Below are positions 2,436-10,307 of a DNA stretch of 11,035 bases, one piece after another. Position numbers and translations under genes: made by a program. Where the stretch lies: the UHGV virus genome UHGV-0227640; one strand, written 5' to 3'. This DNA comes from a virus. Within the stretch, counting starts at the first letter, position 1. Each line of letters opens with the position of its first letter. A model generated the notes under the pieces. The model was not told the DNA's origin. It worked only from the letters and a program-made list of their open reading frames with translations, and searched no databases.

Positions 2436-2456
2436 AAAAACCCGCCGAAGCGGGTT
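2436..2456 (-). terminator. Rho-independent terminator downstream of hok
   Basis: Minus-strand hairpin AACCCGC-uucg-GCGGGUU followed by UUUUU. Core 20 bp AAAAACCCGCCGARGCGGGT is nearly identical to the terminator at 571-590. Confidence 0.6.
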
Positions 2457-2524
2457 AAGCGCGGGTGCATTGAGGATGCCTGACTCATCAGAGGTGGCGA
2501 GGGATTTCTCCCCCGCCTAGTCTC

Positions 2525-2680
2525 TTACTCCTCAGGTTCGTAAGCTGTGAAGACAGCGACCTCCGTCTGGCCGGTTCGGATTCGTACCTCGCAGAGGTCT
2601 TTCCTCGTTACCAGTGCCGTCACTATGACGGTTAAACAGATGACGATCAGGGCGATTAACATCGCCTTTTGCTGCTTCAT
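2525..2680 (-). CDS. hokD: Hok/Gef-family type I toxin (small membrane-depolarising peptide), HokD/RelF-like
   Basis: Not in ORF track (51 aa). Manual translation of minus strand 2680->2525: MKQQKAMLIALIVICLTVIVTALVTRKDLCEVRIRTGQTEVAVFTAYEPEE. AAGGAG 9 nt upstream. From memory this matches HokD (RelF) of E. coli K-12. No relB/relE upstream. Confidence 0.8.
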   Translation of the reverse strand: MKQQKAMLIALIVICLTVIVTALVTRKDLCEVRIRTGQTEVAVFTAYEPEE

Positions 2681-2938
2681 AGCCTGCTTCTCCTTGACCT
2701 TTCGGTCCGTAAGAGGCTAATCTCTATGTGTCGCATAGATATGGCCTCAGATTAATGTTAAGCGTCTTGCAGGACGCGTAATGTTAACTGGGGCTTTTCT
2801 CTATCTGCCTTTTGGTGTTCATGCCTGAGACAGATAGCCTCAAGCACCCGCAGTCATTCTACTTAACTAAGATTTCCCCGCAAACCGTTTTTGTCCGGCA
2901 CAGTAAATATCCAACTAAACCAATGGCGTTCGCTGTAT
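2677..2938 (-). promoter_or_regulatory. hok mRNA leader region; expected position of mok-like coupling ORF and antisense Sok-like RNA
   Basis: 258 bp with no long ORF. A 19-codon uORF (minus 2736->2677, MRHIEISLLRTERSRRSRL) ends in an ATGA overlap with the hok start. Plus-strand TTGACC (2694-2699), 18 bp, TAATCT (2718-2723) could drive an antisense RNA. Inverted repeat CTATCTG/CAGATAG at 2801-2837. Confidence 0.3.
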
Positions 2939-3118
2939 TTACCGCCAGTATTCAATGCACATGACCGCCATGAACACCCCTAAAAAAAGGGCATTTATAT
3001 ATCCAAATATTAATATCAAAACATCAACTTTTTCCATATACCTTGCTGTGAAGATGATGGGCATACATGATACGAACAACCAGAACGCAACAAACAAAAA
3101 CTGCAATGCGTTTTTCAT
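2939..3118 (-). CDS. Small hydrophobic protein (59 aa, two predicted transmembrane helices)
   Basis: MKNALQFLFVAFWLFVSCMPIIFTARYMEKVDVLILIFGYINALFLGVFMAVMCIEYWR. Strong SD (AGGAGG) 4 nt upstream of ATG at 3118. The ORF-track N-terminal extension to 3157 lacks an SD. Embedded in a strongly A+T-rich stretch (about 2950-3290). Confidence 0.55.
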   Translation of the reverse strand: MKNALQFLFVAFWLFVSCMPIIFTARYMEKVDVLILIFGYINALFLGVFMAVMCIEYWR

Positions 3119-3288
3119 TATTCCTCCTACAATCAATGTGCAATTACATTTAAACACACCTCAATTTGGCCGGACATATAAATATCTAAACCAGAAAAAA
3201 TCACTTACATAGCGTTACAAACTCTTTAGTCTAAATATTCATCGTAAAACATTCCCCATACTTATCAGCCCGTTCTGCGCCAGGTAGC

Positions 3289-3605
3289 TCATTGCCTTAT
3301 CTGGGAATCTGTAATCAGGTTTCCGGATGCTGGTGGATTTTCGCGTTTTAGTTGTTCATAAAAGTGCACAGCTTTAACCAGTTCTTCTGATGTAACCGGG
3401 ACTGGCGGGGCAGTGAATAAGGCCTGAATTTCATAGTTCGGCCTGTCGTTACAATCCTCTTTTTTCGGTACATATTTCCAGTCACCAGACCACTACTTCC
3501 CCTGAAAGTCCGTAACGCCTTTTTTTTCACGTAGCGATATCGCCATGCCACTGTTTTTGCTTGCCCCGCCGTTTCATGCCCTTCCTGATAATTAACCTCG
3601 CTCAT
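3289..3605 (-). pseudogene. Decayed Ea22-like paralog (frameshift plus in-frame stop)
   Basis: 5' end (GTG/ATG at 3605, MSEVNYQ...) is DNA-similar to the 5' ends of the Ea22-like genes at 6470 and 7092. After about 20 codons the listed frame turns implausible (basic, low complexity), while the +1 frame carries protein-like WSGDWKYVPKKEDCNDRPNYEIQALFTAPPVPVTSEELVKAVHFYEQLKRENPPASGNLITDSQIRQ ending at 3289, preceded by TAG. Homopolymer runs (T8 at 3520-3527, T6 at 3470-3475) are likely slippage sites. Confidence 0.4.
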
Positions 3606-3778
3606 TCATCGCCCCACTCATCACAATATGCTTCGACCGGAGTTTTTCCTGCTTCATAATCATCACGCCATGCTTCAGCATCAGCAGCACTGCCACCACG
3701 TAACTCTGCATAGTCCATTAACAGTTCATGCCATGCTTCAAAACTGACGTTGTATTTAGTTGAACCAAAATCAGCCAT
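3602..3778 (-). CDS. Small acidic protein (58 aa), hypothetical
   Basis: Manual translation: MADFGSTKYNVSFEAWHELLMDYAELRGGSAADAEAWRDDYEAGKTPVEAYCDEWGDE. GAGG about 10 nt upstream. Start overlaps stop of the 3771-3953 gene and its stop overlaps the start at 3605 (ATGA). Below ORF-track cutoff. Confidence 0.5.
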   Translation of the reverse strand: MADFGSTKYNVSFEAWHELLMDYAELRGGSAADAEAWRDDYEAGKTPVEAYCDEWGDE

Positions 3779-3953
3779 TTTGCTCTTCCTCTTCGTCTTT
3801 TATTTCGTGATATGAGTAATTGCAGTAGTTAAAGAAAATATCTTTTGCTTCGTCATGTATTTCATCAGGCGTCGCATCATCATCCACTTCGAATTCATCC
3901 TCGAAATCTCCACCGGCTATTCCCGTTTCAATAATTATTTTAAACTTTCGCAT
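3771..3953 (-). CDS. Small highly acidic protein (60 aa), hypothetical; possible DNA-mimic
   Basis: ORF-track ORF MRKFKIIIETGIAGGDFEDEFEVDDDATPDEIHDEAKDIFFNYCNYSYHEIKDEEEEQNG; about 20 of 60 residues are Asp/Glu. Preceded by a structured leader (hairpins at 3961-3976 and 3991-4009). Confidence 0.55.
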   Translation of the reverse strand: MRKFKIIIETGIAGGDFEDEFEVDDDATPDEIHDEAKDIFFNYCNYSYHEIKDEEEEQNG

Positions 3954-4046
3954 TTAACTACCGCCCTTTCGGGCGGCCTCCTGATGTTCTGAGGGTGCAG
4001 AAATCCCTCCGGTTAAGGATTAAATTTTTAACAGAGCTAAATTTAA

Positions 4047-4403
4047 TTATTCAGTTCTGGATTTTGTCGCCCTGCGTATCCGCGCTTTCGCGTTACGCTC
4101 AATCTGAATTAGCTTTTCTATATTTTTTCGCCTTTCCTGTTCCTCCTGGCGCAATAGCCTTACATCATCTGCCAGTCTGGTTTCTCTTTTCGCCACAGAG
4201 AGCATCCAGTCAAATGGTTCCACAACTGCACCGCAGATTTTACAGCGGACCTGACGCTCTTTTTCGTCAACCCGGACAGAGGCGTGATGACAATATGGTC
4301 TTTCCGATGGCTCATAAAGAAAATTAACCTGATTACGAGGGTCATCCTCTTTTACCGGAAATAAAACGATATTGCTTAACTCATCCTCTGGTTTTATTTC
4401 CAT
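4047..4403 (-). CDS. Hypothetical protein (118 aa) with zinc-ribbon-like Cys/His cluster and basic coiled-coil tail
   Basis: Internal start MEIKPEDE... at 4403 with AAGGAGAGGAG upstream; the ORF-track extension to 4460 lacks an SD. PYCHH...CKICG motif. C-terminus rich in R/K/E (RRKNIEKLIQIERNAKARIRRATKSRTE). Confidence 0.6.
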   Translation of the reverse strand: MEIKPEDELSNIVLFPVKEDDPRNQVNFLYEPSERPYCHHASVRVDEKERQVRCKICGAVVEPFDWMLSVAKRETRLADDVRLLRQEEQERRKNIEKLIQIERNAKARIRRATKSRTE

Positions 4404-4524
4404 GCTCCTCTCCTTTGATGCGAATGCCAGCGGTAATTGAAGCCTGATAGCTAATTTCACTCACAGTACCGCCTCCTGAAAATTTAATGAACAATTCAAT
4501 ACGTTCTTTGGTAATAGTGGTCAT
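4381..4524 (-). pseudogene. Chimeric 47-codon ORF / deletion scar of an Ea22-like gene
   Basis: MTTITKERIELFIKFSGGGTVSEISYQASITAGIRIKGEEHGNKTRG. The first 21 bp match the 5' end of the gene at 5207 (19/21). The middle contains the TTTTCAGGAGG module. Then an Ea22-like N-terminus (VSEISYQA) is fused directly to the Ea22 C-terminal codons (AGIRIKGE; DNA CCGCTGGCATTCGCATCAAAGGAGAG identical to 5726-5751). Confidence 0.3.
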
Positions 4525-4534
4525 GTGTTACTCC

Positions 4535-4798
4535 TTAACCCGCAGTGCTTTCAACTGATGAGGGGAACAAAATCTTTTCATCAAACCCTGCATTCATATC
4601 ATGAACAGCAACACACCAATCCATCGACGAACGATTATCAAGAGCCTCCATGATTTCATCCATGCGGCGCAGGTCATACAGGTAAATGCTTTTATCGCCA
4701 ATGGTGTAAAAACCAATTTTTTTCGGTGATGGGCAGCGATCAAGAACGTCCTGTAATTCGTTCAACCATGCCCGTTCTTTTTTTGTTAAAGTTGCCAT
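4535..4798 (-). CDS. Hypothetical phage protein (87 aa)
   Basis: Internal start MATLTKKERAWLNELQDVL... at 4798 with AAGGAGAG SD; upstream stop at 4800-4802. The ORF-track extension to 4858 overlaps the upstream gene. Confidence 0.6.
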   Translation of the reverse strand: MATLTKKERAWLNELQDVLDRCPSPKKIGFYTIGDKSIYLYDLRRMDEIMEALDNRSSMDWCVAVHDMNAGFDEKILFPSSVESTAG

Positions 4799-4799
4799 A

Positions 4800-5207
4800 T
4801 CACTCTCCTTTCCCATGAAGCATAGCGGCGCGGCAGGCGTTCCATATTTCGGCAGCAATATCGCGCTCGCTATCGGTTAATTTGTACGTGGAAACATAGC
4901 CAGAGAGCATTTCTACGTTTTCCGGAGTTGCTTCTTCCGGCACTATCGGCGCTGGAGGGGCGGCAAATAGATATCCGCCAAAGTCAGGAAGCTCTCCAAT
5001 GGCCTGTACGAACTTTTGTTTGCCTACGTCAACTCCTAATGGGTAATGAGCTATAATCTTTGCCACCGGCTCTGCTTCCAGCGATACCAGTGCAATTCGT
5101 GCCAGTTCTTCCGCTTCTTCTGCTGGCAGTACAACGTTGCTACCCGGTCCGTATGTTTCGCGCCACTGCTTGATTGTCAGCAGTCGCCCTTTGGTAATAG
5201 TGATCAT
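4800..5207 (-). CDS. Hypothetical phage protein (135 aa)
   Basis: ORF-track ORF MITITKGRLLTIKQW...; ATGA overlap with the upstream gene at 5204-5207. Confidence 0.65.
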   Translation of the reverse strand: MITITKGRLLTIKQWRETYGPGSNVVLPAEEAEELARIALVSLEAEPVAKIIAHYPLGVDVGKQKFVQAIGELPDFGGYLFAAPPAPIVPEEATPENVEMLSGYVSTYKLTDSERDIAAEIWNACRAAMLHGKGE

Positions 5208-5719
5208 GCCGCGTTTCCTTCTTTCTTATTAACAATCACACCGTCATATATTTCATTAAGGTGCCCTCTCAACTCCATGCGCCTTAATGCAGATAACATG
5301 TAATCGCATTCAACCTGCTTATTCCCAGTAAATGGCTTATCGTCAGGATTACCCCAACAGCAATTACCCCTGGGCCATCCATGTACTTTCCGTACTCTTC
5401 CGTTAACAACGTGAAGTAATCCCCAGCCGGGAGGTAAATCCTCAACTGAAATAATTTCCGGCTCACTAATAAAGAATCGCCAGTCGCCCATGCCAAGTGA
5501 GGGATTTTTACGGAAACGCTTTTTTCTATCTGCCAACAAGTCAGCACGAGAACACTTCGCCTCTATCAGGCATGATGCTGAATTTCTGAATCCCATAGCA
5601 TCTGGCTGTTCTCCGGTACTGGTTACAGCAACAAAGCGGTCATGAAAGCAAACCTTGAACCCGTTGCGCTTAAGGAACTTGTACGCAATCTGACAGAGTT
5701 CGCGGTGTGTTAACGCCAT
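5204..5719 (-). CDS. Hypothetical phage protein (171 aa), possible PD-(D/E)xK-type nuclease fold
   Basis: ORF-track ORF. Pattern ...QPDAMGF...CLIEAKCSRADL resembles the D...ExK catalytic signature. Assignment tentative. Confidence 0.65.
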   Translation of the reverse strand: MALTHRELCQIAYKFLKRNGFKVCFHDRFVAVTSTGEQPDAMGFRNSASCLIEAKCSRADLLADRKKRFRKNPSLGMGDWRFFISEPEIISVEDLPPGWGLLHVVNGRVRKVHGWPRGNCCWGNPDDKPFTGNKQVECDYMLSALRRMELRGHLNEIYDGVIVNKKEGNAA

Positions 5720-5720
5720 A

Positions 5721-6470
5721 TCACTCTCCTTTGATGCGAATGCCAGCGGCGCGGATTGCAGCGATGACTTCAGAAACTTTGTATGCCATTACCGTTTGGT
5801 AATCATCGTGAAAATCTGTTCGATGAAGCATGCTGCTACGTTCCGGGAGCGATATTTCCCGAGCATCCAGTTCCTTAACGCGTTCCTCCAGTTCGTAGAC
5901 CCTGCATTGTTCTCTATCATCAATCAGATATAACCCAAGACATTCGCTTTCTACCCAACCGCCAAAATCATGATCGTAACGCTCACATGAAAACTCACCG
6001 TCACCGTCCTTTGTTGGAATGGTGTAACTATCTAATGGGCCACCATATGTCGGCACATTCCCCAATGTTGGATGCTCAATCCACATGAAAAATGCACGTC
6101 CGGTTATTGGGCAAATATCTGGCCGCCATTGGTTACGAACAGCCTTGGTTTCGGATAATTCTTCAGCGTGTTGTTTTACTTCCTCAAGCTCAACTCTCAG
6201 CTTCCCTACCGTTAGCGCAATATCCTCGTTCTCCTGGTCGCGGCGTTTGATGTATTGCTGGTTCCTTTCCCGTTCATCCAGTAGTGCCAGCACGGTTTCT
6301 GGTCCGGTCAGAAATTTGAAGGCATTGAGCGCATCAATATCCACACCGTAATCTTTAAGTTCCTGTTCACTTAACAAATCATCATCAGTTGGCAACATTA
6401 ACAGGCGTTCCATTGCTGGAATTGCACGTTCTGCTGCCTCACGCAGTGCCTGGTAATTAATTTCGCTCAC
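5721..6470 (-). CDS. Ea22-like (ead/Ea22 family) early protein, 249 aa
   Basis: GTG start at 6470 with AAGGAGG upstream. N-terminus MSEINYQALREAAERA is characteristic of lambdoid Ea22-like proteins as I recall them. Coiled-coil-like middle. C-terminus ...AGIRIKGE. Confidence 0.7.
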   Translation of the reverse strand: MSEINYQALREAAERAIPAMERLLMLPTDDDLLSEQELKDYGVDIDALNAFKFLTGPETVLALLDERERNQQYIKRRDQENEDIALTVGKLRVELEEVKQHAEELSETKAVRNQWRPDICPITGRAFFMWIEHPTLGNVPTYGGPLDSYTIPTKDGDGEFSCERYDHDFGGWVESECLGLYLIDDREQCRVYELEERVKELDAREISLPERSSMLHRTDFHDDYQTVMAYKVSEVIAAIRAAGIRIKGE

Positions 6471-6910
6471 TGGTTGCCTCCTTTGCGAAGCTCTGCGGCT
6501 AAATACTCCAACGCCATTACCGGGACGCCAACAAGCACAGTTCCTTTAAACTTCTTATGCAGGTGCTCGATAGCTGTATCCACGCCCTGCGCCCGTACTT
6601 CAGCCAGGAAAGCATCGGTGGCCGGAGTTTCAGGAATCCGTCTCCTCATCAGTTCTATTGCATGATTGAACCCGAAATCTTCAGCAAGAGATACGTCATC
6701 CATATTGTCATTGTCGTCCTCAATATCCCGTGGTTCTGGAATTGCAGACTTTATTACCGCATTCTCCGCCGCCAGCGCCGCGCACTTGGCCTCAAGAGCG
6801 GCAACCACTTCCTGATGGTCTTTGTACTTAACGTATGAGCCGGAGATGTCATCACCTTCGGTGTTTAGCCATGCGTCATTGCAATTCACTGCGTAGGTTC
6901 TGATGCTCAT
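6467..6910 (-). CDS. Hypothetical phage protein (147 aa); possibly the C-terminal part of a split Ea22-like gene
   Basis: Start MSIRTYAVNCND... at 6910 with GGGAGAG upstream; ATGA overlap with the stop of the 61-aa ORF. The ORF-track extension to 6967 is read in the frame overlapping that ORF. Confidence 0.55.
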   Translation of the reverse strand: MSIRTYAVNCNDAWLNTEGDDISGSYVKYKDHQEVVAALEAKCAALAAENAVIKSAIPEPRDIEDDNDNMDDVSLAEDFGFNHAIELMRRRIPETPATDAFLAEVRAQGVDTAIEHLHKKFKGTVLVGVPVMALEYLAAELRKGGNQ

Positions 6911-7092
6911 GTTGATGCTCTCCCGCCCCTGACAGACGCCAGGCCAGTCAATAAAGTATCCGCACAATGCCTACCCTCAGACGTGCGCGCAGGATAAATG
7001 CCGTTATGACCCGGCAAAATATATGCTACCCATTCATCTTGCGTTGCCTGTTCCGCCGCCTCGCGCAGTGCCTGATAGTCAATCTTGCTCAC
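6907..7092 (-). CDS. Ea22-like N-terminal fragment (61 aa); truncated paralog or 5' part of a frameshifted gene spanning 6467-7092
   Basis: GTG start at 7092. MSKIDYQALREAAEQATQDEW matches the N-terminus of the 249-aa Ea22-like protein. DNA at 7040-7092 is about 80% identical to 6421-6470. Confidence 0.45.
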   Translation of the reverse strand: MSKIDYQALREAAEQATQDEWVAYILPGHNGIYPARTSEGRHCADTLLTGLASVRGGRAST

Positions 7093-7573
7093 TGGTCGCC
7101 TCCTTCATAAAAATAATCCAGTGGGTCTTGTCACCCTTTCCTGTTCGTTGACCGATAACAGGCTTTCTGTCGGTCAGTGCCAATATCTGGCGAACAGGTA
7201 TTTGCGTTTCATTCCATTTAAAAATCAGAACGCTGTATGGCCGCAACACACGAAAGGCTTCTTTAAATCCCTGCCGCAAATCATCACGCCAGGTATCTTT
7301 ATTCAGCCGTCCATATTTCTTTCCCATCCAGGCGTTATCACCAACACGCTCAAGATGCGGAGGGTCGAATACAACAACCGGAAACGATGCGTCTGCAAAT
7401 GGTAATGCACGAAAATCTGCTATCAGGTCAGGGCTAATTATCAGTCTTCGTCCATCACATAATGTGTGCTCTTCCTTTCTGATATCGCTAAATATCGCCC
7501 GGTCGTCATTCTTATCGAACCAGAACATGCGGCTGCCACAGCACATATCAAGAATGGTTGCCGGTGCACTCAC
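7079..7573 (-). CDS. Small SAM-dependent DNA methyltransferase (orphan; N6-adenine or N4-cytosine type)
   Basis: 164-aa ORF. Motif I-like ILDMCCGSRMFWFD near the N-terminus and motif IV-like VVVFDPPH. GTG start overlapping the upstream stop (GTGA). No adjacent restriction enzyme gene. Confidence 0.6.
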   Translation of the reverse strand: MSAPATILDMCCGSRMFWFDKNDDRAIFSDIRKEEHTLCDGRRLIISPDLIADFRALPFADASFPVVVFDPPHLERVGDNAWMGKKYGRLNKDTWRDDLRQGFKEAFRVLRPYSVLIFKWNETQIPVRQILALTDRKPVIGQRTGKGDKTHWIIFMKEATSEQD

Positions 7574-7992
7574 TGCGCTACCTCCTGAAAATTACCCTGA
7601 TAAAACGACAATATGCGCTGCATAACTTCGCTCTTCCGGCACTCGCGACAGATTATGTTCTGACGCCTGTCGTAGCGGCGTATTTCGCCGTCTGGTAATA
7701 GCCAGATAAGGTCCGGATCAACCACAGATGGTTTCTTCAGCTTTGCCCTTGAGAGTTTTTTGCGGGCGTTTTGCCAGTCCTTGCGCGCCTGCTCAGACGG
7801 GAATACTCCGTAACCGGAATTGTAAACATCACCACTGGCGGCCAGCTCCATGCATAAACGACCGACAGACGCATGACTGACACCAATTTCATCCGATAAC
7901 TGCCGAATCGTGCCTCGTCCGTTAAGGCGTACGAATTCCACGATCAGCCCTTTAATTTTTTCCCGCTCTTCTTGTGTAAAAACTTTTGCCAC
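7570..7992 (-). CDS. HTH (winged-helix-like) DNA-binding protein, 140 aa
   Basis: ORF-track ORF. GTG start with GGAGG 5 nt upstream. HTH-like segment GTIRQLSDEIGVSHASVGRLCMELA. Confidence 0.6.
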   Translation of the reverse strand: MAKVFTQEEREKIKGLIVEFVRLNGRGTIRQLSDEIGVSHASVGRLCMELAASGDVYNSGYGVFPSEQARKDWQNARKKLSRAKLKKPSVVDPDLIWLLPDGEIRRYDRRQNIICRECRKSEVMQRILSFYQGNFQEVAQ

Positions 7993-8032
7993 AAGCCCTC
8001 CTGAAAATTACCTCATGACCAGAAATTAACAC

Positions 8033-8995
8033 TTACCCCCTGAAGCCCGGCGGAATTTCAGTGTCCGGTTCAGAAATGTGATTCACGCAACGCTGCGCAG
8101 GCGAACGCCCCAGGCGGATAACCAGTTCATCCCATTTTTCCCGGAGTTTTGCCGGACTCATGATGTTTTTTACCCAGAACGAATCCCGCTGGAGACGCCC
8201 AAACATTTCACAAATTTGTCTGTGAGTTCTGCCATCCAGCATCCGCATTGTGCGAACGTCATTGGCCCATGCTGTCCAGTTGGGTTCTTTCGGTCTAGTG
8301 ATCTCGCCATCATAGCTGGCCGCCTGCTCGTAAAGACTCACGATTCGTCCCCAGATCCACTGTGCGCACACCAAATCTTCCTGACTTCCCCACTGGCGTT
8401 TTTTCGCACTGAACACAACCGCGTCAGGGTGTCGGGTTAAAAAATCCTGTTCAGCCGTCTGCGGGTCCGGTTGCGAAGCGTCCGGACAAGAAGATCTTTT
8501 ATCTGACGGATCAGGTTTTAATACTGACGGATCGGGGTCAATCATCGGCCCCCTAATCGGCAGTTTTTTATCAACAGTTGATCCATCAAAATTTGACGGG
8601 TCAACCGTTGAGGGGTCAATATTTGACGGGTCAACTGTTAACGGGTCATTTTTTGCCGGGCTAATTTTTCTTTTCGGTTTATATGACTCACGCGCCGCCG
8701 CCGCAGCTGCTTCGAGTTTTTCCACATTAAGCCGATAGATATTGCTTACATTACGCCCACCGACCTTACGCTCTTCCTTCGTCAGCCAGCCCTCTTTCGC
8801 CAGTTCTGCAATAGCCGATTTCACTGTGGATTCACTTCTTGCACCGATCTGACGCCGGATAGTTTCAATGGCAGGCCATGACACGCCCTCGTCATTGCTG
8901 TAGTCTGCAAGACGGGCCATAACCGCCACCCTGGATAAGATCATGCCGGTGAAGGCGCACCCTTCCCAGACAAGACCATGAAGCTTGCTGCTCAT
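8033..8995 (-). CDS. Phage replication initiator (lambda O-like): N-terminal winged-helix DNA-binding domain, repetitive linker, C-terminal domain
   Basis: N-terminus ...MARLADYSNDEGVSWPAIETIRRQIGARSESTVKSAIAELAKEGWLTKEER. Linker with repeats DPLTVDPSNIDPSTVDPSNFDGSTVD encoded by the DNA iterons. ATG at 8995 with a G-rich SD preferred over GTG at 9010. Confidence 0.75.
   Translation of the reverse strand: MSSKLHGLVWEGCAFTGMILSRVAVMARLADYSNDEGVSWPAIETIRRQIGARSESTVKSAIAELAKEGWLTKEERKVGGRNVSNIYRLNVEKLEAAAAAARESYKPKRKISPAKNDPLTVDPSNIDPSTVDPSNFDGSTVDKKLPIRGPMIDPDPSVLKPDPSDKRSSCPDASQPDPQTAEQDFLTRHPDAVVFSAKKRQWGSQEDLVCAQWIWGRIVSLYEQAASYDGEITRPKEPNWTAWANDVRTMRMLDGRTHRQICEMFGRLQRDSFWVKNIMSPAKLREKWDELVIRLGRSPAQRCVNHISEPDTEIPPGFRG
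8500..8690. repeat. Iteron array plus A+T-rich segment: putative phage origin of replication inside the initiator gene
   Basis: About six copies of TGACGG(G/A)TCA and variants at 8504, 8525, 8594, 8609, 8624 and 8638, some spaced 15 bp apart, followed by the A+T-rich stretch 8649-8685 (TTTTTTGCCGGGCTAATTTTTCTTTTCGGTTTATATG). Confidence 0.55.
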
Positions 8996-9017
8996 AAAAC
9001 CCCCGAACACCGTGCTT

Positions 9018-9443
9018 TTAGTGCATCACCACAGCATTCCCTGCCGGGCCGCCGCGATTCATCTGGTCATACAAAACAACCGCTGACGCAACAAAATCAT
9101 CGACATCCTTCACCAGCCGATCCCTCCGTTCGACGATCTCACGGTAATATTCAGAACTGTGGCTGCGCATACGGGCCACCAGCAAAGGCGGCATCGCCTT
9201 TTCGATCGCCGGTAACAGAGCCTGCATTTTTTCAACAGCATCAGGGGTGTCTTTATCCAGCCAACGGAAAATTTTCTGGGTATTACGGGCCAGGGCTTCC
9301 GGATGGCTGTCGTCATACAGTTCCGGGAACGTCATTCCCAGCTCGAAATACGCTTTGGTAATTTTCGCAGCCGGCACTTTTTCGCCGTCCGGATGCGCCC
9401 AGACATTCATCGCCATGCGGATGTGTTCATGCTTGATTTTCAT
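9018..9443 (-). CDS. YdaT-like (CII-like) regulatory protein, 141 aa
   Basis: ORF-track ORF MKIKHEHIRMAMNVWAHPDGEK.... The position (between the Cro-like and replication genes) and the N-terminus resemble E. coli Rac YdaT as I recall it. Confidence 0.6.
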   Translation of the reverse strand: MKIKHEHIRMAMNVWAHPDGEKVPAAKITKAYFELGMTFPELYDDSHPEALARNTQKIFRWLDKDTPDAVEKMQALLPAIEKAMPPLLVARMRSHSSEYYREIVERRDRLVKDVDDFVASAVVLYDQMNRGGPAGNAVVMH

Positions 9444-9708
9444 GAATCAAGCTCCTAGAAAGTGGTTGTGTTAACGTTTTGGTATCTTCCAGCTCGGGCC
9501 AAATATTCATCCAATCAAAAGGCCTTAGTTGCTGACGTGTAACTTCACCATTACTGGCTCGCTCAATAAGGACACATAACGATGCCCCTAACACTTGACC
9601 TTTACTCAATGCCTTTCTTAGATAACCGATGCTGGTACCACACTCGCATGCAAACATACGCTGTTCATCTGACGAAAGAGAATTGAGAAATATTCTTAAT
9701 TCTTCCAT
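9427..9708 (-). CDS. Cro-like / YdaS-like HTH regulator, 93 aa
   Basis: ORF-track ORF. AAGGAG 6 nt upstream of ATG at 9708. HTH-like segment CECGTSIGYLRKALSKGQVLGASLCVLIERAS. Divergent from the repressor gene. Confidence 0.7.
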   Translation of the reverse strand: MEELRIFLNSLSSDEQRMFACECGTSIGYLRKALSKGQVLGASLCVLIERASNGEVTRQQLRPFDWMNIWPELEDTKTLTQPLSRSLIHENQA

Positions 9709-9732
9709 AGCTACTCCTTAGTAAACACAGCA

Positions 9733-9802
9733 AAGAATACCCACAGGTAAACAAAAGTCAATACCCACAGGTTGTTTACCTTGCGGTAATCGCATCTATT
9801 AT
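9733..9802. promoter_or_regulatory. Immunity switch: divergent promoters with operator-like sites
   Basis: Sites TACCCACAGGTA (9738-9749) and TACCCACAGGTT (9762-9773), 24 bp centre to centre. Inverted repeat AGGTAAACAA / TTGTTTACCT (9746-9755 / 9771-9780). Leftward promoter TTGACT (9761-9756), 16 bp, TATTCT. Rightward TTTACC (9775-9780), 16 bp, TATTAT (9797-9802), placing the transcript start at or next to the ATG at 9809 (leaderless, no SD). Confidence 0.5.
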
Positions 9803-9808
9803 TTACCT

Positions 9809-10228
9809 ATGGACAAATATGAATTTAGACGACAGCAACTCATCAAAATTCGTGATGAGAAATGCGATGGTAAAGCGGTTAACGTGGCCAGAAAGATCGG
9901 GCGCGAGCCTTCTTATGTATCAAGAATGTTGTACCCAGAGGGGAAAAAGGGAAAAAAACGGATCGCTGATGATATGGTGGAGATTATCGAAGAGTCCTTT
10001 GGGTTACCCCGGGGATGGATGGATGGTATCGTTTCATCATCAACGAACACAGCCTCCAGTTATGAAACAAGGGTTCTAACGCCACGACAACGTATTTTTT
10101 TAGATCTCTTAGACGAACTGCCAGAAAGTGAAGCGGATAAATTATTAAAAACTCTTGAAGAGAAAAAACAGTATTACAATATGATCTACGAAGAAATCCG
10201 TAAAAAGAAAGCACAAAACGCATCATAG
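9809..10228 (+). CDS. Prophage repressor-like HTH protein (positional equivalent of CI/DicA/RacR), 139 aa
   Basis: ORF-track ORF. HTH-like segment AVNVARKIGREPSYVSRMLYP. C-terminal ...LDELPESEADKLLKTL resembles the DicA C-terminal region as I recall it. No S24 peptidase domain. Confidence 0.7.
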   Translation: MDKYEFRRQQLIKIRDEKCDGKAVNVARKIGREPSYVSRMLYPEGKKGKKRIADDMVEIIEESFGLPRGWMDGIVSSSTNTASSYETRVLTPRQRIFLDLLDELPESEADKLLKTLEEKKQYYNMIYEEIRKKKAQNAS

Positions 10229-10270
10229 CTCACCAAACAACTAGTCACCAGTTAAGACACCGCAAAAATT

Positions 10271-10307
10271 TACCCATGGGTATTTACTTTTTAAATACCT
10301 ATGGGTA
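10271..10307. promoter_or_regulatory. Second pair of operator-like sites upstream of the ydfA-like operon
   Basis: Perfect palindrome TACCCATGGGTA (10271-10282) and TACCTATGGGTA (10296-10307), 25 bp centre to centre, same consensus as the sites at 9738-9773. Confidence 0.4.

Follow-up and report, generated by a model that had tools for sequence, protein, structure and literature searches.

The 11,035-nt stretch of DNA analysed here (virus genome UHGV-0227640, hereafter the window) comes from an E. coli lambdoid prophage of the Rac/Qin-like type. Positions 2437-10300 were 99.9% identical to the chromosome of strain Ecol_316, and mosaic patches of similarity to phage records covered no more than 41% of the window. 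The genes around the feature under study all lie on the minus strand and together form a polycistronic rightward operon. This is the cro-O-Q operon, and the feature occupies the position of lambda's nin region. The operon and its surroundings contain:

9427-9708, minus strand: cro-like regulator, first in transcription order
9018-9443, minus strand: YdaT
8033-9010, minus strand: O-like HTH protein
7570-7992, minus strand: resident intact DUF977 gene, 3 kb upstream of the 47-codon ORF described below
7079-7573, minus strand: methyltransferase
6907-7092, 6467-6910 and 5721-6470, minus strand: three Ead/Ea22-like genes
within 5204-5719, and 4800-5207, minus strand: two ORFs; RefSeq marks one as a frameshifted gene and the other as a pseudogene truncated at its C-terminus
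4535-4798, minus strand: 87-aa gene, directly upstream of the 47-codon ORF
4047-4403, minus strand: 118-aa gene with a weak Zn-ribbon match, downstream of the 47-codon ORF
3771-3953, minus strand: DUF7167
3602-3778, minus strand: 58-aa gene
3289-3605, minus strand: frameshifted pseudogene, before hokD/sok
2678-2849, minus strand: sok antisense RNA of the hokD/sok toxin-antitoxin locus (Rfam RF01794, 106.7 bits)
2525-2680: hokD, adjoining sok

Genes of the Ea22, EaA and 87-aa types (window 5721-7092 and 4381-5207) adjoin xis and int, in the leftward operon, in the prophage of strain BEC1-S17. The leftward operon is their position in lambda-like prophages and in lambda, whose ea22 lies between exo and xis in the leftward early operon, whereas here the rightward operon holds them, with the replication genes on one side and hokD/Q on the other. 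The occurrence of these genes in both positions indicates that accessory genes pass from one early operon to the other. Five tandem 15-bp repeats (TCAACnGTTGAnGGG-like) at 8571-8660, inside the O-like HTH gene, look like origin iterons, by analogy with lambda O. Elsewhere in the window, a minus-strand block at 591-2436 (ORFs 602-1747 and 1744-2358) matched the PADLOC anti-phage system RmrTA. The RmrA match had an E value of 5e-102, with HTH and IrrE/M78 peptidase domains; the RmrT match was weak (E 7.5e-10). The block is flanked by two copies of a hairpin, AAAAACCCGCCGARGCGGGT (571-590 and 2436-2455, 19 of 20 positions identical). The Ecol_316 prophage, 99.9% identical apart from this, lacks the RmrTA insert and has one hairpin, so that the block has the look of a defence 'moron' with a duplicated, terminator-like hairpin at its borders.

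The segment 4381-4524, which the original prediction had singled out as a patchwork junction, has exactly the bounds of a 47-codon minus-strand ORF (MTTITKERIELFIKFSGGGTVSEISYQASITAGIRIKGEEHGNKTRG, then stop), annotated by RefSeq as hypothetical protein WP_000207966.1. These 144 bases are an ordinary phage-shuffling scar, made of the end remnants of three prophage genes. The prediction was right that the segment is composite; it counted three modules, and there are four gene-end pieces. The elements of the ORF and its start region are as follows:

4483-4545, minus strand: piece 1, the 3' flank of an 87-aa gene plus an EaA/DUF550-type start; 100% identical to the 87aa-EaA55 region of the BEC1-S17 prophage
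4531-4536, minus strand: Shine-Dalgarno AAGGAG, 6 nt before the ATG of the 47-codon ORF
4522-4524, minus strand: ATG of the 47-codon ORF, inherited from the EaA-type gene
4483-4524, minus strand: EaA codons 1-14 (ATG ACC ACT ATT ACC AAA GAA CGT ATT GAA TTG TTC ATT AAA)
4483-4484: novel joint, AA common to both parents
4461-4484, minus strand: piece 2, final 24 nt of a DUF977/LygF gene; 100% identical to the 3' ends in phage 640R1 and strain JE86-ST02
4472-4477, minus strand: embedded Shine-Dalgarno AGGAGG, within the DUF977 tail
4408-4464, minus strand: piece 3, mini-Ea22, consisting of Ea22 N-terminal and C-terminal codons
4462-4464, minus strand: mini-Ea22 GTG start, overlapping the DUF977 TGA
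4441-4464, minus strand: eight Ea22 N-terminal codons, VSEISYQA (GTG AGT GAA ATT AGC TAT CAG GCT)
4408-4440, minus strand: eleven Ea22 C-terminal codons, SITAGIRIKGE (TCA ATT ACC GCT GGC ATT CGC ATC AAA GGA GAG)
stop at 4381-4383, minus strand: eight read-through codons overlapping the 118-aa gene (GAG CAT GGA AAT AAA ACC AGA GGA TGA)

On the minus strand the start is preceded by AAGGAGTAACAC, followed by the ATG. Piece 1 was also 99.3% identical to phage 689R5. In protein alignments, residues 1-14 of the ORF equalled EaA proteins (689R5 and Salmonella phage VSe13) and were unrelated beyond. Piece 2 reads (N)FQEAVL plus TGA (4461-4463) in the DUF977 frame; in the 47-codon ORF it supplies six out-of-frame codons, TTT TCA GGA GGC GGT ACT, encoding FSGGGT (residues 15-20). 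The EaA start happens by chance to be in frame with the mini-Ea22 GTG, resulting in the 47-codon chimeric ORF. The usual TGA of mini-Ea22 is missing here, and reading continues to the stop at 4381-4383. The first 23 nt of the 118-aa gene overlap the ORF, and its Shine-Dalgarno lies within the KGE codons of mini-Ea22.

Several of these pieces resemble sequences elsewhere in the window:

5188-5208, minus strand: start of a paralogous 135-codon ORF, 4800-5207 (MITITKGR...ARIALVSLEAEPV); 19/21 identical to 4505-4525
5721-5749, minus strand: 3' end of the resident 249-aa Ea22-like gene (..AAGIRIKGE, then stop), holding a copy of the 26-mer at 5724-5749
6448-6470, minus strand: beginning of an Ea22-like gene (VSEINYQA), paralogous to the start of mini-Ea22, as is 7070-7092
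7570-7596, minus strand: 3' end of the resident DUF977 gene (GNFQEVAQ, then stop), carrying GGTAATTTTCAGGAGG
7997-8012, minus strand: third copy of GGTAATTTTCAGGAGG, in the O-like/DUF977 intergenic spacer, where it gives the Shine-Dalgarno for DUF977

Comparison of the window with itself confirmed significant repeats at the predicted sites, and none of 200 dinucleotide-preserving shuffles reproduced any match. The match of 4505-4525 to the start of the gene at 5188-5208 was 19 of 21 nt, as predicted, and a second match appeared in 0 of 200 shuffles. The sequence CCTCCTGAAAA (reverse complement of TTTTCAGGAGG) had exactly three copies, at 4472-4482, 7581-7591 and 7997-8007 (expected 0.01). The two distal copies were identical over 16 nt (7581-7596 vs 7997-8012), and 4472-4484 matched 7581-7593 over 13 nt. 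The predicted recurrence of TTTTCAGGAGG is thus real, but the sites given for it (7583-7597 and 7996-8010) were off by 1-2 nt, and what had been called a module does not stand alone: it closes DUF977 genes at the 3' end and contains the Shine-Dalgarno used by the following cistron. The 26-mer CTCTCCTTTGATGCGAATGCCAGCGG occurred exactly at 4408-4433 and 5724-5749; its predicted identity with an Ea22 3' end was exact, with the second copy misplaced by 2 nt (5726-5751). The sequence 4442-4464 resembled the starts of Ea22-like genes (83% identical to 6448-6470 and 78% to 7070-7092), bearing out the claim that an Ea22 5' segment is fused to an Ea22 3' segment.

These look-alike copies (78-90% identical, the exact 26-mer apart) are the ends of paralogous genes and not donors; the actual parental arrangements, found in other prophages, match at 100%. 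The 19/21 match reflects paralogy, as ORF 4800-5207 begins with an EaA-type N-terminal module. The copy at 4472-4484 is a stump left from a different allele of DUF977, and the one at 7581-7596 is part of the resident gene. The resident DUF977 gene is bracketed by a 16-nt exact direct repeat, GGTAATTTTCAGGAGG (minus strand), one copy in the spacer before its start and one inside its 3' end. Between its O-like gene and DUF977, ATCC 25922 carries a DnaC-like and a DUF1627 gene, both missing from the window. The upstream copy, 7997-8012, may be a further DUF977-tail stump left by an earlier rearrangement. The intact 135-codon ORF 4800-5207 itself looks like another chimera, its EaA-type N-terminal module being followed by a C-terminal half that equals the end of a 146-aa 'Ea22 protein' of 689R5. 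RefSeq annotates only 5073-5207 of it, as a truncated pseudogene.

Next, the parents of the segment were sought by BLAST against 50,697 phage records, which placed breakpoints at window positions 4432/4433, 4484 and 4483. Stx phages such as ArgO145 matched up to 4432/4433, where a 344-aa Ea22-like gene ends ..AGIRIKGEEHGNKTRG and stop. Phages 640R1 and 813R8 were 100% identical up to 4484, and 606R7 96.8%; in 640R1 the match takes in the last part of LygF/DUF977, with the 118-aa gene immediately after it. From 4483 onward, 689R5 and VSe13 matched; there the 87-aa gene ends and 'EaA' begins, a gene of 55 aa in 689R5 and of 228 aa with DUF550 and DUF551 in VSe13. Both parental arrangements therefore exist uninterrupted: DUF977, mini-Ea22 and the 118-aa gene in 640R1 and strain JE86-ST02, and the 87-aa gene and EaA in 689R5, BEC1-S17 and VSe13. 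The mosaic pieces are traced in this way to distinct arrangements in other prophages, in line with the modular shuffling that had been predicted. The search for an ancestor in related prophages recovered the EaA and DUF977 parental arrangements; the undeleted Ea22 parent was not found among them.

We then aligned the window with the BEC1-S17 prophage (Ea22-...-87aa-EaA55 adjoining xis and int) and JE86-ST02 (DUF977-mini-Ea22-118aa). The window agreed at 100% with the BEC1-S17 parent as far as the joint, and from there on at 100% with the JE86-ST02 parent. Within 60 nt on each side of the joint the two parents, aligned in register, were 15-25% identical; at the joint itself they had only AA (2 nt) in common. 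Their best local alignment scored 11 against a shuffle mean of 11.6. No diverged homology 'shoulders', the expectation for homeologous recombination (PMC2327257), were found within these 60 nt in the three-way alignment. Each flank is thus near-identical to a separately existing parental arrangement, and homology between the parents at the crossover does not exceed a few nt. The 2-nt overlap, near-chance parental identity and lack of shoulders indicate that the EaA|DUF977 join arose by illegitimate recombination. It is interior to both genes, connecting EaA codon 14 to a point 24 nt before the DUF977 stop.

Frequencies were determined in 5426 complete E. coli genomes. The junction of DUF977 to mini-Ea22 was present in 1309 of them and the 87aa-EaA junction in 1004. 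The recombinant EaA|DUF977 joint occurred in 73, with a junction 100% identical throughout, and BLAST found it in none of the 50,697 phage records. Among 18 joint-bearing loci compared, the joint and the whole 47-codon ORF were identical in all 18, which fell into two mosaic backgrounds. The window-type background had at least 4-5.6 kb in common with the window. In the ATCC 25922-type background homology stopped at 4802, on the boundary sequence GGAGAGTGATATGGC, and DUF4014 lay upstream instead. In relatives of both backgrounds the 2.4-kb block 2437-4802 was 97.5-99% identical to the window. The identity of the joint in 18/18 loci, together with this level of divergence in the shared block, indicates a single and not very recent origin with later exchange of the flanks. 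A boundary sequence, ..AAAGGAGAGTGATATGGC, is found at two cistron junctions in the window, 4797-4812 and 5718-5733 (4794-4833 vs 5715-5754). Its coincidence with the 4802 break in ATCC 25922-type relatives is consistent with module exchange at boundary sequences.

Taken together, the segment very probably bears the scars of two recombination events in this Rac/Qin-like prophage's rightward operon, an Ea22 deletion and then a non-homologous EaA-DUF977 join. The original prediction offered an internal deletion or an illegitimate recombination scar, and both are present, as two separate events. In the older event, an Ea22-type gene directly after DUF977 (LygF) would have lost its whole interior, leaving 8-9 N-terminal and 10-11 C-terminal codons as mini-Ea22. 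This loss would have spared the boundary signals, namely the GTGA stop/start overlap and the ..IKGE codons, in which AAAGGAGAG acts as Shine-Dalgarno for the gene that follows. The deletion is presumed older because DUF977 runs continuously into mini-Ea22 in the 1309 genomes above. In the younger event, codon 14 of an EaA/DUF550-type gene would have been joined non-homologously to DUF977 24 nt before its stop, one element contributing ...Ea22s-87aa gene-EaA upstream and the other DUF977 tail-mini-Ea22-118aa gene-DUF7167-...-hokD downstream. The scar was most likely tolerated since the start signals of the 118-aa gene stayed intact.

Other routes to the joint were weighed. Chance or miscounted matches, or an assembly artefact, have practically no probability left, given that no shuffle reproduced any match and that 73 genomes, each finished independently, have the junction at 100% identity. 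A homologous or homeologous exchange at short linker sequences conserved at gene boundaries, a route put forward for some module exchanges of lambdoid phages, would fit the abundance of conserved boundaries here (the Ea22 3' end, equal to lambda's; AAAGGAGAGTGATATGGC; GGTAATTTTCAGGAGG) and the 4802 homology break of ATCC 25922-type relatives on such a sequence. Such an exchange requires a shared stretch of tens of nt, which the parents lack at the crossover: they share 2 nt, identity stays at chance for 60 nt on both sides without shoulders, and the joint lies inside both genes, not at a boundary. We regard this route as highly improbable and reject homologous exchange at a conserved boundary. 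An unequal non-homologous crossover between sister copies of one prophage, giving a tandem duplication of about 2 kb (DUF977tail-...-EaA14) that was trimmed later, is unlikely, if less so. JE86-ST02-type prophages carry both parental sequences in the same orientation 2 kb apart, and their order, reversed relative to the window, is the signature expected of a duplication joint. Yet neither a second copy of the block nor an upstream DUF977-mini-Ea22 junction was present in any of the 18 joint-bearing loci, and at least two further events would be needed for either background. A crossover between two elements would be simpler because one event explains either background, and we infer that two elements recombined.

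The older deletion is read from the gene ends. Members of the Ea22 family have a conserved N-terminal VSxIxYQA start and a C-terminal K/RGE end (PMC7093339), and mini-Ea22, VSEISYQA...AGIRIKGE, carries both signatures. Of the 26-mer, 24 nt were identical to the end of lambda ea22, which closes with GCTGGCATTCGCATCAAAGGAGAG as mini-Ea22 does (the lambda end is also written GCTGGCATTCGCATCAAAGGAGAGTGA; L155, 1048-1075), and the 26-mer is the conserved Ea22 3' end. Mini-Ea22 would be an Ea22-type gene that kept only its two ends; both the endpoints and the mechanism of its deletion are inferred.

The parental gene was looked for in IMG/VR pattern scans, whose figures are samples among the matches listed. 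Every instance of the mini-Ea22 3' half (at least 135) and 5' half (at least 120) was mini-Ea22 again among the matches listed. It was preceded by a DUF977 tail, in several diverged alleles, in 94 of 110 of the matches listed, and by the EaA stump in 16. The pattern scan of the 5' half gave no hit, among the matches listed, that continued as a full-length Ea22. At least two hits had a DUF977 tail followed by an Ea22-like start; one (L156) reads VSEISYQALIAAGIRIKGE with a normal TGA stop, and the ..YQAL of this diverged allele agrees with the ..YQALREAAE.. start of full-length Ea22 proteins. One viral contig (L041) carries two DUF977-mini-Ea22 units (5835-5917 and 9506-9588), 3.7 kb apart. At least 17 haplotypes of mini-Ea22 occurred. 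The distinct changes among them numbered 6 synonymous, of 39 possible, and 12 non-synonymous, of 132 possible; these counts give no clear sign of purifying selection and are too small to be informative. In the protein database mini-Ea22 appears as 40-aa 'hypothetical proteins', each on hundreds of contigs.

The reverse history, in which a short ancestral ORF later received the domains, would agree with one result, that among the IMG/VR matches listed there was no full-length Ea22 allele with the exact mini-Ea22 ends. We consider it less plausible than deletion because the first residues of mini-Ea22 fall within PF13935, a domain that in the resident 249-aa protein (E 3e-29) begins at residue 2. 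As to the 47-codon ORF, it is probably translated, given its good inherited ribosome-binding site, and most likely a by-product with no function of its own beyond sparing translation of the 118-aa gene. That it is instead a real small-protein gene under selection, its resemblances being functional motifs, is very unlikely. PGAP annotates the ORF, its AAGGAG stands 6 nt before the ATG, and the exact, invariant 47-aa sequence occurs on at least 1000 contigs and in 73 complete genomes, in two backgrounds. However, it is built from four unrelated gene fragments, one of them out of frame, and matches no family; its last eight codons are an overlap with the next gene seen also for the 344-aa Ea22 of ArgO145; invariance is the expectation for a single recent origin; and a 39-aa variant with the normal Ea22 stop exists.

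No Pfam family matched the 47-aa ORF at E<=0.01, the Ead_Ea22 model (PF13935) included. With VSe13 gp026 the ORF has no more than residues 1-14 in common, and the DUF550/EaA (PF04447) domain of that protein spans 42-137; of DUF977 (PF06163) only the last 24 nt are present, out of frame. At the joint, no sigma-70-like promoter or intrinsic terminator was found on the coding strand and no Rfam family, the only Rfam hit in the window being sok. The predicted RNA fold at the joint was no more stable than shuffles (z = +1.04), and PADLOC returned nothing relevant to the joint among the neighbouring ORFs.

The universal K/RGE C-terminus of Ea22 has been called 'of unknown significance' (PMC7093339). 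In mini-Ea22 its codons, AAA GGA GAG (4408-4416), form the Shine-Dalgarno of the abutting cistron, AAAGGAGAGTGATATG or AAAGGAGAGGAGCATG (compare 4797-4812 and 5718-5733). The K/RGE end may be a translation signal rather than a protein feature, because these codons equal the Shine-Dalgarno and lambda ea22 has the same nucleotides. A tentative extension, which we think doubtful, is that mini-Ea22 is a maintained 'empty cassette', a 19-codon bridge coupling translation of DUF977 and the 118-aa gene whose conserved ends serve as homology arms for swaps of Ea22 cargo by phage recombinases. Its arms would be 23 nt from the Ea22 5' end and 24-26 nt from the 3' end, the second unchanged even in lambda. 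If so, the K/RGE end would be the Shine-Dalgarno of the next cistron written in protein.

The modular theory of phage evolution is reportedly that of Susskind and Botstein. The younger event is of a well-documented kind, a novel joint of lambdoid mosaicism, and involves no new mechanism or system. Like the novel joints of HK97/HK022 (Juhala et al. 2000; Hendrix et al. 1999; both as cited in PMC2327257), it shows an abrupt switch of about 100% identity between relatives whose parents lack homology there, in an arrangement that survives since operon function is kept. Unlike the classic joints at gene boundaries, the EaA|DUF977 joint lies inside two genes, and both stumps fuse into an annotated ORF. 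Conserved gene-boundary (linker) sequences are described for HK620 (Clark et al. 2001, as cited in PMC2327257). Like these, the Ea22 3' end GCTGGCATTCGCATCAAAGGAGAG is the same in lambda, in Stx phages and in the present prophage, beside unrelated sequence; mini-Ea22 retains just the linker-like boundary pieces, whereas the younger joint used none.

Little is left of the source proteins. Ea22 of lambda and Stx phages (PF13935, Ead_Ea22) is a pro-lysogenic factor (PMC7093339, PMC10834534); mini-Ea22 shares its first eight residues (VSEISYQA; compare VSEINYQA and VSKIDYQA) and last residues with K/RGE, but lacks the N-terminal domain, coiled coil and C-terminal domain. Compared with EaA of P22 and the DUF550 (PF04447, dATP/dGTP pyrophosphohydrolase) plus DUF551 protein, 14 of 228 codons are left and the catalytic domain is gone; these codons and the ribosome-binding site equal those of VSe13 gp026 and of 55-aa E. 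coli 'EaA' ORFs. From DUF977/LygF (PF06163), the last seven codons and stop equal the 640R1 LygF 3' end, a tail only, read in another frame.

What is slightly unusual is that the joint lies inside genes, both parents are extant and the product is annotated as a protein. A 'hypothetical protein' found on at least 1000 E. coli contigs, including ATCC 25922 and O104:H4, is thus a chimera of three stumps and not a gene family, and the 40-aa mini-Ea22 ORFs are to be read likewise as gene remnants. As a clean natural joint with 2-nt microhomology, both of whose parental arrangements are extant, it bears on the debate over illegitimate versus homeologous mosaicism (PMC2327257).
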